From assembly GCF_029227855.1 (NCBI RefSeq), contig NZ_CP074358.1: a stretch of 64,000 bases of DNA; one strand, written 5' to 3'. The position numbers and the translations under genes are program-made. The notes below the pieces were generated by a model. It was not told the DNA's origin. It saw nothing but the letters and a program-made list of their open reading frames with translations, and did not search any database. Shown piece after piece: positions 394 through 27,400 of this stretch. Origin of the DNA: Escherichia coli (GTDB taxonomy: Bacteria > Pseudomonadota > Gammaproteobacteria > Enterobacterales > Enterobacteriaceae). Position 1 is the first letter of the stretch. Each line of letters starts with the position of its first letter.

Positions 394-585
394 GCTCGTA
401 AGCGGCCCTGACGGCCCGCTAACGCGGAGATACGCCCCGACTGCGGGTAAACCTTGTCGGGACCACTCCGACCGCGCACAGAAGCTCTCTCATGGCTGAA
501 AGCGGGTATGGTCTAGCAGGGCTGGGGATGGGTAAGGTGAAATCTTTCAATCAGTACCGGCTTACGCCGGGCTTCGGCGGTTCGG
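394..585 (+). repeat. Unassigned conserved element, copy A (23-nt core GCTCGTAAGCGGCCCTGACGGCC at 394-416 identical to 27246-27268, with patchy similarity over about 150 nt)
   Basis: Direct comparison of the two loci in the sequence; no family recognised. Confidence 0.5.
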
Positions 586-1417
586 CTATGTGCCATATGA
601 ACAACTGAGTGCCGCCTTACATGCCGCTGATGCGGCATCCAGAAAAAGGCTCCACGTCCTGAAAGATGTCAGCTTCCTTTCCTGGTCCAGCCATATTTTG
701 AATGCAGGCGCTGCTTCGTCGGTTTGTAGCCATTCAGCAAATCGACGGATTTCATCATTTGCATCCTGACGTACAGTGATATTCATATCACGCCATATCA
801 CGTAGTCTGGTGCTATTTCTACGATATTCCTGGATTACTGGCCGCCCAGTCAGCCCATGTGATCCACACATCTGCTTCAGGCTGATTCTCAAGTGCCTTA
901 CGTGCAGTTCCGCTATTGGCGCATACAAAATAATATTTTTCCGGATTGCTGCGACCGTTTCTATATTTCCCTTACGTCCGGCAATATCTTCCCAGACGCC
1001 TGTACCTGATGTATTACTGGTGCCACCACCATCATTAACGATGATACCAATCCCTGGTCTGGTCAGGTCGTCAATACTCCGGATATTTTTAGGGTTACCT
1101 TCCTTTACCAGTAAAATACTTTTTCGCAGATAAAGAGGCTGAATATCCTTTTCATTAAATCTGTCCTTATAGTCCCGAGTGATAGCAAGAGCAGATTGTT
1201 CTGATGCACCAAATAGAATATCTGCATTCTTTTTGGCATCTTCATTCCATTTATGTTGTGGACCGTAATGAATGTTCACTGTAACACCGGTTTTTTCGGC
1301 GTAAAGCTTGGCTGCATCGAGCAAGGCTGTATGTGGACCACCAGGTCCATACAAATTGATATCTGCATAAGCAGCAGAAGACAGAAATATTAAAAAACCA
1401 GCTATTGTGCTCCTCAT
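586..1417 (-). CDS. AcfC-like periplasmic solute-binding protein (accessory colonization factor family), apparently frameshifted
   Basis: ORF 788..1417 has a signal peptide and INLYGPGGPH motif typical of AcfC homologues; ORF 586..801 continues in another frame with an overlap at 788-801. Confidence 0.5.
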
Positions 1418-2201
1418 TAAGAAACTCCTTTTATTAAATGTGATGATTTTTGCAAAATAAAATATAAACCACTAAAGTCAATAGATATTATGCCCAGATA
1501 AATTTATGTGTTTTCACCATGTGCATAACTCGTCATTTATAGTTAACAAAATTAAAAAAGATTATATGTATTCTGAGGAGCATAAACCTTACACATTGAT
1601 TACATTTTTGTAATGTACAAGTCGTTTGGTATTCTTGCGGATCGCATCAATCTTGGCCTGACCAAAATGGCGGAAGCCTGCCCCGGGGCACCAAATCATC
1701 ACTCGAAGATATTCAGGCATGATACATCCGCGATGAAACCAACTCTGCCGCCCTTGCAGAGCTGGTAAACGCGCAGGGGAAAAGGCCGCTATGCAGGGGC
1801 GCTTAACCCGAAGTACGGGCAGGATCGCGGGTGTCAGTTTTATTCCCATATATCGGATCAATACAGCCCGTTTTACATCTGGAAAAGCAACCGGATACCG
1901 GCTTCCGGTAAGTTTCGTCGGCTGAGATCAGCTAAAGTCGAAAGGTCAAAAAATAGCCTTGATGTACAATAATTTTCGATATCCAAACTGCCACCTATAT
2001 TTAGGCGTTGAAATTTTTTACTTTAACTCGTTTGCAAACATCACCGACACCTGCTCCTTAACTGAACGGTATTGCTTCTCAGGAGGAGTTTTTTACATTT
2101 ATGTAAATATGCAGTGATTGTATTTTTAGTTGGTTGTATTTTAATGATAAAGCATGTAATTTATTAAAGAATTAAAATACAAAAATTATGGAACTCTCTT
2201 T

Positions 2202-2702
2202 ATGTTAAAAACATTGACAATAAACGCCATAACACAATACATTGATGATAATCTGGAAAAAGAACCCATAAAAATAGACGAGCTTGTTAATTATTCTGGA
2301 TATAGTAAAAGATATCTGCAATTACTATTCAAATCAAAAATTGGTATTAGCGTCGGGAAATATATTCAGTTAAGAAGAATCACTCGCGCAGCCACACTGC
2401 TAAGATTTACCAATTTGAGTATTTCAAATATTTCAGCAAGATTACTCTACGATTCGCAACAAACATTTACACGTGAATTTAAAAAAAACAGCGGCTATAC
2501 GCCTTTACAATACAGAAAATCTAAAGTATGGACTTTTAAAAATATGACAGTCCGTCGAGAAGCTAATAATTATATCCCGATTCCGGAAATTCGCTATTTA
2601 GAACAAAAAAAAATCATCGGCAAAAAGATTTTTATAAAGAAAAAATCCCAGCCACTAACCCATTATCGGAACTTAAATGGACCTCTGTTGATTCTCTTTT
2701 AG
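2202..2702 (+). CDS. AraC/XylS-family regulator with N-terminal HTH (Rob-like); C-terminal part may continue in another frame to about 2883
   Basis: Translation shows a typical AraC HTH pair (SGYSKRYLQLLFK ... TFTREFKK..GYTPLQYR); A/T homopolymer runs at 2600-2660 precede an in-frame continuation at 2713-2883. Confidence 0.55.
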   Translation: MLKTLTINAITQYIDDNLEKEPIKIDELVNYSGYSKRYLQLLFKSKIGISVGKYIQLRRITRAATLLRFTNLSISNISARLLYDSQQTFTREFKKNSGYTPLQYRKSKVWTFKNMTVRREANNYIPIPEIRYLEQKKIIGKKIFIKKKSQPLTHYRNLNGPLLILF

Positions 2703-3149
2703 CTAAATCGAATGATTCTGTTTATATTTCGCATAAGTTTGAATTGGATAAAATAGACAATAACTACATGTATTTTAATGCAGTTCTCTGGGGAGCAAAT
2801 GAGGATAATAAATACAATGGTGAAGAATTAACTGAAGGTTTTACGCTTATTTCCACTTTAATGGTTCAAGAGAGGAATACATAAAACTAATATATAATAT
2901 ATACTTAATTGCAGTGCCATTTTATGGGTTGCAAAAAAAAGATTCCTATGACCTTGAAATAATAACAAAAACTTATGATGATGCATGCTTTTTTGAGTAT
3001 TTTCTACCGATAGAAAAAGAAGAGTGAATTTTAAGATTGTATATTCATTCCATTACTCCAGATATCTGACAATAATGTTGAAAAGCAATCTGTTGGGATT
3101 ATTTACTAACCCGGCTCGATGTTTATCGGTCCAGTACTTCCCTGTATAA

Positions 3150-3800
3150 CATTTGTCTGTTCACAATAGCATGCTCAGAATTCGCTATCGGGAGGCTCTG
3201 CTATCACGTTTTGCTGCGGCACGGGCTCTGATTAAATCCCGAATAGCTTCATGAGTCAGGTCAGGGAGCCAAACAAGGGTAAGTTCACCTGCTCGCAGTA
3301 ACCAAGCGAGAGAAATTACGTCCCGATGATCATTTTGGCCCTGTCTGTCAGTGATTCTGGTATTTTATACTCATCGCTGTAAGTTGATAATATAGCACAA
3401 ACCACAGTGGGGCAGCCTCATAGCAGGAAAGAATGTTTCCGTAAAGTTCCTGCAATTTTTGAAATAATCGACGTACAGCCTAGCCCGACGTAGGTCGCAA
3501 TATTTTCCGAAAGCATGATGACCTCCTCTGGAATATCCAACCAATACTATAGCGAGTATATAAAGGTCATACCATCTATGCCTTCTTTGGCAGCGTTCTG
3601 GCTATCGACAAGCTCGGTTTTCACACTGCCGCCAAAGTAGCTGAAGGCTCGCACCAGATACTTATTGAACTCCACCCATCTAAACACGACCGCTGATTTC
3701 ACGGGTACTCTGCCTGTATGTGCCCGTTACGATGGCTGTGCAACGGATTTATGCTCAAGCAGTAGCTCATTCTGGCTTATGAGTAGATGATGAGCTCCTC
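3150..3800 (-). mobile_element. IS debris: fragments of an IS110-family and an IS2-group (IS3 family) transposase
   Basis: Minus-strand translations give transposase-like fragments (LAWLLRAGELTLVWLPDLTHEAIRDLIRARAAAKRD; RAHTGRVPVKSAVV); no intact ORF. Confidence 0.4.
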
Positions 3801-3869
3801 CTTGAAAACAGTACCAGTCTAAACTGAAGTCTCCGGTCTTTCTTCCTGCTCACAGAGAGGTTTATTATC

Positions 3870-25802: not shown

Positions 25803-25825
25803 TTATCCCCAGAATCTGTGGATAA
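25803..25825. promoter_or_regulatory. Inverted pair of DnaA-box-like sequences (TTATCCCCA ... TGTGGATAA)
   Basis: TGTGGATAA matches the DnaA box consensus; located in the RepFIB region just upstream of the small ORF. Confidence 0.55.
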
Positions 25826-26039
25826 CTGTTGCTCCTCTTTTGAGAGAGAAGGCTTTACTCACCGCCTGAATGCGGCAGATATGTCTGGACGATATATCTG
25901 CATACGCCGGTACTGCTTCGTCAGATTGCACGGCAGGTGAATTGCCGGGCTGGTACCATACCATATTTGCGCCGAACCCGTCCGGGGCGGTGCCGATAAC
26001 AGATGTTAAATGATTGGTCGTTTTTACATCTGTAAAAGC

Positions 26040-26074
26040 AACAGGGCCCCATGATTATATCATGGGGCCCTGTT
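26040..26074. terminator. Long perfect hairpin (ACAGGGCCCCATGA-loop-TCATGGGGCCCTGT)
   Basis: 14-bp perfect inverted repeat with a short AT loop at the transition from the RepFIB block into the AT-rich intergenic region. Confidence 0.5.
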
Positions 26075-26691
26075 ACTCTGATTCTTCGCAATAGATTGCT
26101 CTGAATTAGATGCGCCTTCTCCATATAGACTAACAGTTCTATATTATTTTACCATCTTTAAATGTGTAAGAGTTTTCTGTTTTTTATTGGTGTTTATCTG
26201 TATTTTTTGTTTTAGGAACGTTTTTGTAAGAATTATCTTTTATATTTGAGGTGATATCTTATTGTGGTTGTTGTAATAGTTTAGAGTCGTAATAAATATG
26301 ATTGATCGCCACTTTAAATGAAGTTAATCTACTGGAGATGAAGTAACTTCATTAATGCGTCATAAAAATAAAAATTCCTGTTTTGGGAAATATGAATGTG
26401 TCTGTCCCCTCCTTCGGGAGGGTGTTTTTTATCTGGAAACTGGTTTCTGGTTCTGATTTTTCTTTTTGTATTATAGCGAGTTACGCATATTTACCAATCG
26501 ATGTCTGGCAAACAGAGTATGGCGATGGTGTGATTTGTGTTTATTGGTAAAAAAAACACCCCCGTAGTGGGGGTGTTGAAACTTCAACCTATGTACTCAT
26601 TATCCTTGGATGGATGAGTAGCGTGCGATATTGAATCATATTCAGCAGGAATAATAATATTCGCAAAAAAATGGATGTGCAAGGAAATTTT

Positions 26692-26859
26692 TTATATGCT
26701 TTTGTGTGTGGTGGTTAGGTAATCAAGAAGATAAATGATGAAGTGTGCCAGTTCAGGATCAATGTTTCCATGGGAAAGCCATTTATTAATAATATCAATT
26801 AAGTTCGAAAGCTCAGGGAAGATTTGTTCAATGTTTTCCTCTGTCTCCCGCACAGTCAT
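26692..26859 (-). CDS. Small hypothetical protein (about 55 aa)
   Basis: Internal start MTVRETEEN... within track ORF 26692..26907; lies in an otherwise ORF-poor AT-rich region. Confidence 0.3.
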   Translation of the reverse strand: MTVRETEENIEQIFPELSNLIDIINKWLSHGNIDPELAHFIIYLLDYLTTTHKSI

Positions 26860-27245
26860 ATAGCGACGTCTCCTTGGGGATTGAAAACAAAAACAATAAT
26901 ACAACAAGTATGAAACAGAAGGTAGGTGGCAGGGGCGGAACAGGAAAACGCATGAGGGCGCTTCCTGGGGGAGATGCCTGGTATCTTTAGGGTTCAGTTT
27001 TGAGATCGGGAATTTTTGTACATTAAGTGCATTATTTAATCAATTGAAACGCGTAATGGATTGATTTTATCAGCAACTATCGCGTTTAAGTTGTCGATCA
27101 TATTTGAGTTGTCTCATTAAGGTCGAATCCCCTGAAAGCGGCGTATAACGTAGGAGTTCCCCTCTATAGCAATAGGTAAGGCTGTTCAAAAAAGGCTTAC
27201 CGTACAATAATTCGCTATATCCAGACGGCCCCCCTTGTCATACAA

Positions 27246-27400
27246 GCTCGTAAGCGGCCCTGACGGCCTGTCAATGCGGTACTGCCCTGTCGGGACTGCT
27301 CTACCCACATAAGTTTCTACATAGCTTGAAGCTGGATGGGGAGGTATTACGGCTTTAGCCGTAATACTTTCTTCGTCCTCGCAGCGCTGACAGTTTTCAG
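27246..27400 (+). repeat. Unassigned conserved element, copy B (paralogue of 394-585)
   Basis: Identical 23-nt core at 27246-27268, shared blocks after it, and a perfect 10-bp hairpin GTATTACGGC-TTTA-GCCGTAATAC. Confidence 0.5.

Follow-up and report, generated by a model that had tools for sequence, protein, structure and literature searches.

A conserved hairpin-forming DNA element lies just past an IncFII-type oriR and adjoins a putative priming site

Introduction

What is a conserved element doing twice in one plasmid, at sites that share an identical core? The 64,000-nt stretch of Escherichia coli DNA analysed here (contig NZ_CP074358.1; the window) carries the 23-mer GCTCGTAAGCGGCCCTGACGGCC exactly twice, at 394-416 and 27246-27268, on the + strand in both places; 100 shuffles gave no chance match, even with 3 mismatches allowed. 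The initial annotation had read the element around this core (E; copies A and B) as a structured RNA or the end of a mobile element. We find that E is a conserved, non-coding, structured nucleic-acid element, as annotated, but most probably neither a new RNA nor a mobile element: it is hairpin-forming DNA just past an IncFII-type oriR, adjoining a putative priming site, in an origin region that has been studied for long.

Results

Copy A belongs to an IncFII origin region

Copy A had been described by its neighbour, an AcfC-like gene (788-1417, - strand), but the neighbour that matters is the IncFII repA/oriR, repA ending just before the window start. Position 1 of the window corresponds to position 39879 of the R100 locus (L023), in which repA stops at 39670 and a DnaA box, TTATCCACA, lies at 39846-39854. 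Copy A is ~96% identical to plasmids with IncFII repA and collinear with R100; it lies ~600 nt downstream of IncFII repA (in R100 the core is 604 nt after the repA stop), within the region annotated repA4 in R100. In pCFS3246-1, repA, tap and repA are directly upstream of the matching region. We place the end of oriR near 150, on the assumption of a 188-bp minimal oriR, and the core of copy A is 244 nt beyond that end. The features of this region are as follows.

1-150, + strand: right-hand part of oriR; the window begins inside oriR, ~209 nt after the repA stop codon
196-212, - strand: Ter1, a Tus-binding terminator-like site reading GAGTGTTGTAACTAAAGT; would stop leftward forks
333-347, + strand: Ter2, GAATGTTGTAACTAA; would stop rightward forks
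389-519, unstranded: copy A of E, with S1, S2 enclosing S3, the block CATGGCTGAAAGC (491-503) and the shared start block
401-420: hairpin S1, which includes the 23-nt core; AAGCGG (400-405) in the 5' arm
425-429 with 466-470: stem S2, CGGAG/CTCCG
436-441 with 456-461: hairpin S3
508-519, - strand: start block ATGGTCTAGCAG; CAG at 517-519 is CTG on the - strand, a putative primase start
552-638, - strand: three hairpins a, b and c, 5' of the CTG on the - strand, like the stem-loops of the phage G4 origin
557-570: hairpin a, CCGGC-TTAC-GCCGG
576-580 with 612-616: hairpin b
621-638: hairpin c, ATGCCGC-TGAT-GCGGCAT

Ter1 and Ter2 form an inverted pair (I2), 94% complementary. Taking GNRNGTTGTAAYKA to be the Ter core consensus and comparing with TerB of MG1655, we found core matches at 333-346 (GAATGTTGTAACTA) and, on the - strand, at 200-213 (GAGTGTTGTAACTA). 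The same TerB served to calibrate polarity: it lies upstream of tus, has AATAAGTATGTTGTAACTAAAGT on the + strand and blocks clockwise forks. Ter2, ~50 nt upstream of the core, is conserved in nearly all replicon-linked copies. A published table locates repA4 363-751 nt after repA1 (PMC2762410), and a transposon-insertion screen of pEC958 found repA4 among the genes required for stable maintenance, with ter sites placed in the repA4 region (PMC4398462). Copy A is, we infer, the working copy of the resident IncFII replicon.

The association extends to the family. Of the 107 copies with 1500 nt or more of upstream flank, 84 have IncFII/IncI RepA encoded upstream on the same strand, almost always at a distance of 597-683 nt, and in 3 more a divergent protein of 300-315 aa resembling IncFII-family RepA ends at the same spacing; most of the others are orphans or lie beside transposases or divergent RepA. 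When homologues were sought with RepA alone, leaving the core aside, E turned up in the corresponding position in Serratia, Edwardsiella, Erwinia and Xenorhabdus, and the family as a whole comprises IncFII, IncI and relatives in these genera and Klebsiella. The near-constant spacing to RepA indicates that E is part of the replicon and not an insertion. The distance from E to the upstream repA/oriR is fixed while the downstream genes differ among plasmids, which speaks against E being a cis-regulatory RNA for a gene downstream.

E is a folded, non-coding domain

Conservation of E was measured over 103 unique sequences; the invariance of the core across most of this collection was partly imposed by the search patterns used. 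In the three-helix fold 94.6% of cells are paired, and 5 pairs (13 cells) have changed on both sides, a level reached in none of 500 shuffles, with slid controls at 28-46%. Compensatory changes keep the pairing of S2, S3 and the inner part of S1. The earlier suggestion that some differences between the two copies are compensatory thus held: S2 pairs CGGAG with CTCCG in copy A and GGTA with TACC in copy B, and the family-wide counts confirm covariation. The CTG inside the 23-nt core is a loop base only and varies (G/C/T/A). Natural deletions have removed the middle domain from copy B and from L005, L012, L087 and L115. The asymmetry of G-T versus A-C mismatches gave no indication of the strand that folds.

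E does not encode protein. The ORFs over copy A are short (38-43 aa) and mutually discordant, as had been noted, one 78-aa ORF (27186-27422, - strand) overlaps copy B, and indels of 1, 12, 15 and 20 nt break the frame. A search of both copies with the Rfam 15 covariance models, proposed earlier as a route to an RNA family, returned no match at gathering thresholds or at E<=5. Near either copy we found no promoter-like sites, and in neither do terminal inverted repeats bound E.

A near-invariant CAG and three further hairpins lie beyond E

Reading away from repA, the module consists of oriR, two inverted Ter sites, E with its three helices, a block of 12 nt that has a near-invariant CAG at its end, and three hairpins. 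The CAG at 517-519 is ~368 nt beyond the assumed oriR end. It is kept in at least 98% of the 103 unique sequences while its flanks vary, and all 22 diverse sequences of alignment A4 have CAGG; the most distant homologue, from Xenorhabdus (L152), has TAG in its place. In one homologue (L004) the - strand reads CCTGCTAAGCC, identical to the alpha3 start site, a match that alone is not statistically significant. Work by Masai and Arai in 1989 and by Bernander in 1992 is said to have put the leading-strand start of R1 'about 400 bp downstream of oriR', with which the distance from CAG to oriR in copy A agrees.

Hairpins a, b and c are outside E, which lies 3' of the start on the - strand. Stems b and c are 96.4% paired, with 7 pairs (24 cells) changed on both sides (0/500 shuffles), and hairpin a covaries as CCGGC/GCCGG, GCGGC/GCCGC and CCCGC/GCGGG.

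Copy B is an orphan that has lost the start block

Beyond the core, the initial annotation had listed blocks of similar sequence in A and B. By plain blastn these are too weak alone, only ~40 nt being significant (388-427 versus 27240-27279, 87.5% identity, E=6e-8). They are nevertheless homologous, because intermediate variants bridge the copies and the family profile matches copy B: in L018, L103 and L106 a 5' part of the A type leads into the B-type hairpin ATTACGGCTGAAGCCGTAAT and tail TTTCGTCCTCGC, and the profile matches 27240-27393, with an E-value that is inflated by the presence of copy B in the training set. The features around copy B are as follows.

26988-27233, + strand: segment X, directly upstream of copy B; homologous to the segment between oriR and Ter2 in L124
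27241-27342, unstranded: copy B of E, an orphan, the same as in the F plasmid
27253-27272: S1; AAGCGG at 27252-27257
27278-27281 with 27302-27305: S2, GGTA with TACC
27285-27294: a small CCC/GGG hairpin
27320-27332: CATAGCTTGAAGC
27344-27390, unstranded: hairpin a', GTATTACGGC-TTTA-GCCGTAATAC (27344-27367), and conserved tail TTTCTTCGTCCTCGCAGCGCTG

The region is 100% identical to F (NC_002483, 40148-41148, around 40.7 kb). Compared with copy A, copy B has two ~20-nt deletions, one in the middle domain and one removing the start block (alignments A2 and A3), and the - strand of 27238-27375 contains no CTG. The perfect hairpin recorded earlier in copy B was recovered as hairpin a' (inverted pair I2); together with its tail it also follows an intact E and start block in IncFII-type replicons (L018, L103, L106). 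No IncFII RepA was found upstream of copy B. Segment X is 74% identical over 182 nt to positions 7129-7310 of L124, an IncFII-type replicon, 200-380 nt upstream of the core there, and recurs in L011, L017, L018, L070, L087, L112 and L114. Copy B appears to be an orphan remnant of an IncFII-type origin region, carried by F-like plasmids, and is probably itself no primase start site because the start block is lost.

A third, partial copy lies beside oriT

The module profile also matched (nhmmer E=7e-7) a third copy that, like copy B, adjoins no oriR.

56558-56690, - strand: start block ATGGTCTGGCAG (56558-56569) with hairpins a, b and c, without E
56567-56569: CTG, a putative start trinucleotide
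56607-56619: hairpin a
56625-56628 with 56665-56668: hairpin b
56673-56690: hairpin c

This copy closely follows the 3' end of the SLT/geneX gene and is on the leading-region side of oriT, which the arrangement of ORFs and the position of traJ (58106, + strand) place to the right of the copy. It was found beside the transglycosylase gene in 4186 plasmid records, and a stand-alone copy elsewhere (L124b) has the same layout of start block and three hairpins without E. The third copy retains the CAG block and the three hairpins but nothing else of the module, which shows that E and the putative primase site are separable units. It probably serves for priming on the transferred strand.

Discussion

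With moderate confidence, we take copies A and B to be homologues of a single cis-acting, non-coding DNA module of the IncFII-family replication origin region, a priming module of the replicon that acts as single-stranded DNA. On the best reading, E is the conserved hairpin domain flanking the putative primase site in that module, and its role is putative. The closest known counterpart is the primase "G site" (a G4-type ssi) of R1/R100 and ColIb-P9, which we take to have been described in the same R1/R100 region as the module; the bounds of the published site, and whether E falls within them, are our inference. Copy A comes from the same replicon family, that of the repA4 region of NR1/R100, and matches in position (a few hundred nt beyond oriR, beside the inverted Ter pair), with a conserved CTG on the leading-strand template and hairpins on the 5' side of that CTG. 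The repA4 region is needed for stable inheritance (PMC4398462). The likeness to a G4-type site does not come from E, which is found across the start from the G4-like part and is missing from the stand-alone copy beside oriT; copy B is entirely without the start block.

At the G4 origin the start used by primase is a CTG located 3' to three stem-loops, and the complementary-strand origins of G4 and alpha3 have three stem-loops 5' of the CTG on the template, as in the plasmid module (PMC6783573). Short GC-rich hairpins with 3-4 nt loops are common to both, and there are short matches to the alpha3 start on the - strand (see above) and to stem-loop II (CGGAGATAC) on the + strand; overall similarity to the G4/alpha3 origins was not significant by shuffling (best z 2.3-2.6). 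The phage origins differ in that their first hairpin is adjacent to the start, whereas that of the plasmid module is ~40 nt away, and in that they have no second structured domain, whereas the plasmid has E 3' of the start.

It is unlikely that E is instead a separate phiX174-type primosome assembly site for PriA (protein n'), independent of the neighbouring primase start and acting on the + strand, the lagging-strand template of a fork leaving oriR. AAGCGG, a weak hallmark, is common to the n' sites of phiX174, ColE1 and mini-F. The 5' arm of S1 has AAGCGG closed by CCGCT, even in the Xenorhabdus homologue found without the core, and in the F-G intergenic region of phiX174, where the n' site lies, a hairpin has the 5' arm GAAGCGG closed by CCGCT; a second AAGCGGCC hairpin lies at 280-326, and a 1988 paper reportedly described two ssi signals in an R1 derivative. 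Like the n'/PriA sites of phiX174, ColE1/pBR322 and mini-F, E may thus be seen as a single-stranded hairpin signal near a plasmid origin, but only the 6-mer and the hairpin logic are shared, which is weak evidence, and the strand would be opposite to that of the primase start. We know of no accepted consensus for n'/PriA sites, and R1-type origins load DnaB through RepA and DnaA, so that a PriA site is not required. E also keeps the start block in rearranged variants (type II loci), which a linked function predicts and an independent site need not show.

An improbable alternative is that E works as double-stranded DNA bound by a protein of replication or termination, for example RepA, Tus or some other host factor, with the hairpin potential incidental. 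This would account for the very strong conservation of CGTAAGCGG and CCCGCTAACGCGGAGATACGCC, for the position beside Ter2 and oriR and for the need of the repA4 region in stable maintenance (PMC4398462), but compensatory changes in S2, S3 and inner S1 are not usual for duplex protein-binding sites, and the middle domain can be missing or have another hairpin in its place.

That E is a small RNA, or the structured 3' portion of a transcript leaving repA/oriR, is still less probable. The covarying fold fits RNA as well as DNA, and hairpin a' (copy B, type III loci) precedes a T-run, as in intrinsic terminators; against this stand the lack of an Rfam match at E<=5 and of a promoter-like site, a position fixed to the origin and not to any downstream gene, and the placement of E between replication terminators and primer start. 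Least likely, and largely refuted, is a mobile-element end or a protein-coding sequence: orphan copies lie away from rep genes (copy B, L005, L006), some copies abut transposases (L049, L128) and the R100 annotation lays the repA4 ORF over E (PMC2762410), but the borders have no terminal inverted repeats, repA spacing is constant, the adjoining transposases are different elements that truncate the region, and the indels and short ORFs speak against coding.

Returning to E as the hairpin domain of a priming module, opening of the origin would leave the - strand single-stranded; this strand would serve as the leading-strand template and would, in this plasmid, also be the one that conjugation transfers. 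Primase would start a primer at the CTG complementary to CAG 517-519, ~370 nt past oriR, and the primer would be extended rightward, with the three hairpins on the template's 5' side as the counterpart of the G4 stem-loops. A simple priming model leaves unexplained the orientation of Ter2, which is such as to block a helicase on its way from oriR to the start site. Across the start from the three hairpins, E most likely keeps the start site clear of SSB or phases it, and most likely also helps the priming machinery to bind; it may in addition keep in order the ~170-nt stretch from Ter2 to the primer start, which would stay single-stranded until the replication round ends.

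Position of the conserved element in an IncFII replicon

Scanning the window for the 23-mer GCTCGTAAGCGGCCCTGACGGCC, we found it on the + strand at 394-416 and again at 27246-27268, with no additional match in the window when up to 3 mismatches were allowed and none in 100 shuffles, confirming the claim of the initial annotation that two copies with an identical 23-nt core lie in the same orientation. The further blocks of similarity claimed around the core stood in part. In blastn, significant similarity between copies A and B was limited to ~40 nt around the core (388-427 vs 27240-27279, E=6e-8), and the additional blocks, weak in this comparison alone, proved real and became convincing upon adding intermediate variants. 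The perfect hairpin ascribed to copy B was found at 27344-27367.

More than 5000 plasmid records share sequence with the first 1200 nt of the window. In pCFS3246-1, the IncFII repA stop codon is positioned ~207 nt before the window start, with the regulatory repA and tap lying ahead of this repA. In the R100 reference (locus L023), repA ends at 39670, the DnaA box of oriR (TTATCCACA) occupies 39846-39854, window position 1 corresponds to 39879 and the core starts 604 nt past the repA stop. According to a published table, the ORFs annotated as 'repA4' occupy the stretch 363-751 nt past repA1 (PMC2762410); given that this span equals ~155-545 in window coordinates, copy A is located inside the region called repA4. 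The repA4 region was described as holding ter sites and as important for stability, and in a transposon-insertion screen of pEC958, stable maintenance was scored as requiring repA4, among other genes (PMC4398462). Our first guess from the first 390 nt, a leading-region single-strand promoter (Frpo/ssi), was ruled out both by traJ/FinP at 58.1 kb, which puts oriT far off, and by the R100 layout, according to which the window begins in oriR. Reading from repA, the module carries oriR, the Ter sites, the conserved hairpin element (E) with its start block, and three hairpins (a-c).

Features of the module at copy A (window coordinates; strand where assigned)
196-212, - strand: Ter1, inverted pair with Ter2
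333-347, + strand: Ter2, inverted pair with Ter1
389-519: E, copy A, ending in the 12-nt start block ATGGTCTAGCAG (508-519)
401-420: hairpin S1 of E, AAGCGG in the 5' arm; central loop base G, C, T, A or absent
within E: stem S2, CGGAG with CTCCG, enclosing S3
within E: S3, CCCGAC with GTCGGG, with a small inner stem
557-570: hairpin a
576-580 with 612-616: hairpin b
621-638: hairpin c

The two Ter-like, Tus-binding sites at 196-212 and 333-347 are inverted and 117 nt apart. Their polarity was calibrated with TerB, whose + strand in MG1655, immediately before tus, reads GTATGTTGTAACTA. TerB stops clockwise forks, i.e. forks moving toward increasing coordinates, and therefore Ter2 is expected to stop rightward forks and Ter1 leftward forks. 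The pair should thus form a small trap for forks, positioned past oriR and before E. Ter2 is oriented so as to block movement from oriR toward the primer start, which a simple initiation model does not account for. Between the Ter sites, positions 280-326 form an imperfect hairpin with a 22-nt arm; its 5' arm starts with AAAGCGGCC and has the 8-mer AAGCGGCC in common with the 23-nt core.

Distribution of E among replicons

Searching for exact matches to the core pattern yielded 15 reference-genome and 120 metagenome loci, to which plasmid records added more. Upstream flank of 1500 nt or more was available for 107 copies; of these, 84 carry an IncFII- or IncI-type RepA upstream on the same strand, and in nearly all of these the RepA alignment ends 597-683 nt upstream of the copy. 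The other 23 include nine F-type copies B, three chance hits or fragments, and three copies preceded, at the same end spacing, by a divergent protein of 300-315 aa resembling IncFII-family RepA; the rest mostly adjoin transposases or are orphans. As the collections were gathered using the core, invariance of the core within them is partly imposed. To control for this bias, plasmids were searched with a divergent RepA protein and the downstream DNA was then read. This RepA-based search revealed E at the same position in replicons of Serratia, Edwardsiella and Erwinia, its loop being shorter or changed; the Xenorhabdus homologue retained CGTAAGCGG and CCCGCTAACGCG.AGATACG and carried compensatory changes in the second stem and in the inner stem of the first hairpin. 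A Pectobacterium replicon harbors a different hairpin element, Y, where E would be.

Element Y (CCGGAAATCACGCCC-TTTACG-TCGTAAACGC-CGTAAAG-CCCGCTCACCGG) is present in L007, L022, L040, L084 and L108, ~130-330 nt past the core, and in L150 at 2740-2830. It either takes the place of E, as in Pectobacterium, or follows E in tandem with a second start block, as in Klebsiella-type IncFII replicons, and Y could represent a paralogue of E that has diverged. Loci that we termed 'type II' carry this tandem, in which E and its start block are followed by Y, another start block and the hairpins a, b and c; this arrangement ruled out our first impression of a hairpin replacement.

E and the downstream hairpins are structured

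The feature is real and structured. In an alignment of 23 diverse sequences, 94.6% of the cells of E were paired, with 5 pairs and 13 cells changed on both sides; none of 500 shuffles reached the observed covariation, and slid controls paired only 28-46%. For hairpins b and c, pairing reached 96.4% and two-sided changes were seen in 7 pairs and 24 cells (0/500 shuffles), and hairpin a alternates between CCGGC/GCCGG, GCGGC/GCCGC and CCCGC/GCGGG. The S2 register CGGAG/CTCCG was confirmed by its change to CGCAG/CTGCG in Xenorhabdus. Copy B retains S1, a small inner hairpin and also S2, the latter by a change of CGGAG/CTCCG to GGTA/TACC, and the middle domain of E is naturally shortened or replaced in several lineages. 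A long-range pairing between the core and GCTGAAAGCG proposed by RNAalifold is broken in several lineages and hence was not used, and the stem register CGCGG/CCGCG was dropped given that position 473 varies freely. Counts of G-T versus A-C mismatches do not identify the folded strand and are partly an alignment artefact.

A conserved CAG, a putative primase start and a third copy

The start block ends in CAG (517-519), which reads CTG on the - strand and is conserved, amid variable neighbours, in at least 98% of the 103 unique sequences; CAGG is invariant in 22/22 diverse sequences, and the Xenorhabdus homologue carries TAG in place of CAG. The block is positioned ~368 nt past the inferred oriR end. 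A CTG within the 23-nt core was rejected as primase start, for its base is G, C, T or A across copies, or deleted. Leading-strand synthesis of R1 reportedly starts at a primase-dependent 'G site' ~400 bp downstream of oriR, in work attributed to Masai and Arai 1989 and Bernander et al. 1992; a signal related to the R1 G site is said to have been described in ColIb-P9, and the G sites of R100 were reportedly dissected by Tanaka et al. 1994. In phage G4, a CTG follows three stem-loops on their 3' side, and primase, acting with SSB, initiates at its T (PMC6783573). The plasmid hairpins a-c likewise lie 5' of the CTG on the - strand. We therefore take the putative priming signal proper to be the start block plus hairpins a-c, with E as a conserved structured domain on the opposite flank. 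Copy A had no match to phages in blastn, and Smith-Waterman comparison of the module with the G4 and alpha3 origins, using shuffles, was not significant on either strand. Short matches to phage origins on both strands (CGGAGATAC on +, CCTGCTAAGCC on -) fall within the shuffle range and may be taken only as hints.

A profile of the whole module detected a partial third copy (copy 3) at 56558-56690 (E=7e-7), which consists of ATGGTCTGGCAG followed by covarying hairpins a, b and c, without E and without the 23-nt core. Found in 4186 plasmid records, copy 3 sits on the leading-region side of oriT, just beyond the SLT/geneX gene at its 3' end. The position of the leading region and of oriT is fixed by the sok and the traJ 5' UTR/FinP matches.

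Rfam matches elsewhere in the window
4135-4266, - strand: isrN, just above threshold
46537-46636, - strand: AS-pc01
53939-54115, + strand: sok
58106-58217, both strands: traJ 5' UTR with FinP

Additional stand-alone units of start block and three hairpins are present in L124 (10485-10620) and in L011 (two copies), several kb from the replicon-linked one, and dispersed copies are therefore not peculiar to this plasmid. Together, copy 3, the stand-alone L124 copy and the type II loci indicate that E and the three-hairpin unit are separable, each keeping a start block. The tra genes of this plasmid are on the + strand, which, together with the established polarity of F transfer, makes the - strand the transferred strand. 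Given that all three copies have the same orientation, copy 3 is a plausible candidate for a priming site in recipient cells, with its CTG on the transferred strand.

Copy B as a replicon remnant in F-like plasmids

The copy B region is 100% identical to positions 40148-41148 of the F plasmid (NC_002483). There, copy B is flanked by RepFIB repB on one side and the pif genes on the other, and IncFII-type rep genes are absent from the neighborhood. Its start block was lost by a deletion of ~19 nt, and the - strand of 27238-27375 is without any CTG. Directly upstream of copy B is segment X (26988-27233; 245 nt, non-coding), which is 74% identical to the segment between oriR and Ter2 of the IncFII-type replicon L124, and replicons L018, L103 and L106 carry, behind an intact E and start block, the hairpin and tail that flank copy B on its right. 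Because of the segment X homology and the recurring hairpin and tail, copy B and its flanks look like the decayed post-origin region of an IncFII-type replicon. The near-identity of copy B across ~360 F-like plasmids reflects recent common descent and says nothing on selection. Segment X recurs in eight other loci at 72-85% identity and outside L124 is not adjacent to the module. On the strand opposite to copy B and ~600 nt before it, Rfam gave a full-length match to the small RNA UptR (26555-26646, - strand, 124.8 bits), which appears unrelated to E.

Alternative readings and possible function

A PriA-type assembly site on the + strand is a live rival to a structured domain flanking the priming signal, as AAGCGG is carried in a hairpin arm of E as it is in the region of the phiX174 n' site, the primosome assembly site recognised by PriA. 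A structured RNA is disfavored, as Rfam gave no match over E at any threshold tried, no promoter-like site was found for E, and its position follows the origin and not the genes downstream. Similarly, a mobile element is disfavored by the lack of bounding inverted repeats and the constant spacing to repA, and a protein-coding reading by the short ORFs (38-43 aa) and by indels of 1, 12, 15 and 20 nt.

Returning to E as a domain of the origin region, R1 replication reportedly involves a single fork that circles the plasmid as far as Tus-ter near oriR (PMC4999828). If so, the - strand from oriR to the primer start, including the complement of E, would be single-stranded until the round is completed, and a conserved fold in this gap would have a task while the strand stays single. 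That E is a distinct ssDNA device, uncharacterised so far, which goes beyond a mere primase-site flank and manages a long-lived gap between Ter2 and the leading-strand start, we consider quite unlikely. The simple initiation model leaves the stretch from Ter2 to the start single-stranded on one daughter molecule for the whole round, and in such a device the hairpins of E would control gap filling and termination, keep off RecA or nucleases, or block re-initiation. Orphan copies, B in F for example, would in that case play an equivalent part in a new host, acting on the transferred strand. In kind, E and its module are ordinary: part of the IncFII-family origin region, sequenced since 1980 and studied as repA4, ter sites and G site.

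The importance of the finding lies mainly in annotation, with the conserved block and its companion sites present in thousands of IncF and IncI plasmids. E and its companion sites have no feature in the annotation tables examined and no Rfam entry, and scans will therefore keep flagging these blocks as mystery conserved elements. The layout of oriR, inverted Ter pair, E, CTG start and three hairpins marks the origin side and the replication direction of IncFII-family replicons, helps to spot replicon remnants such as the one in F, and flags a probable site of transferred-strand priming beside oriT.
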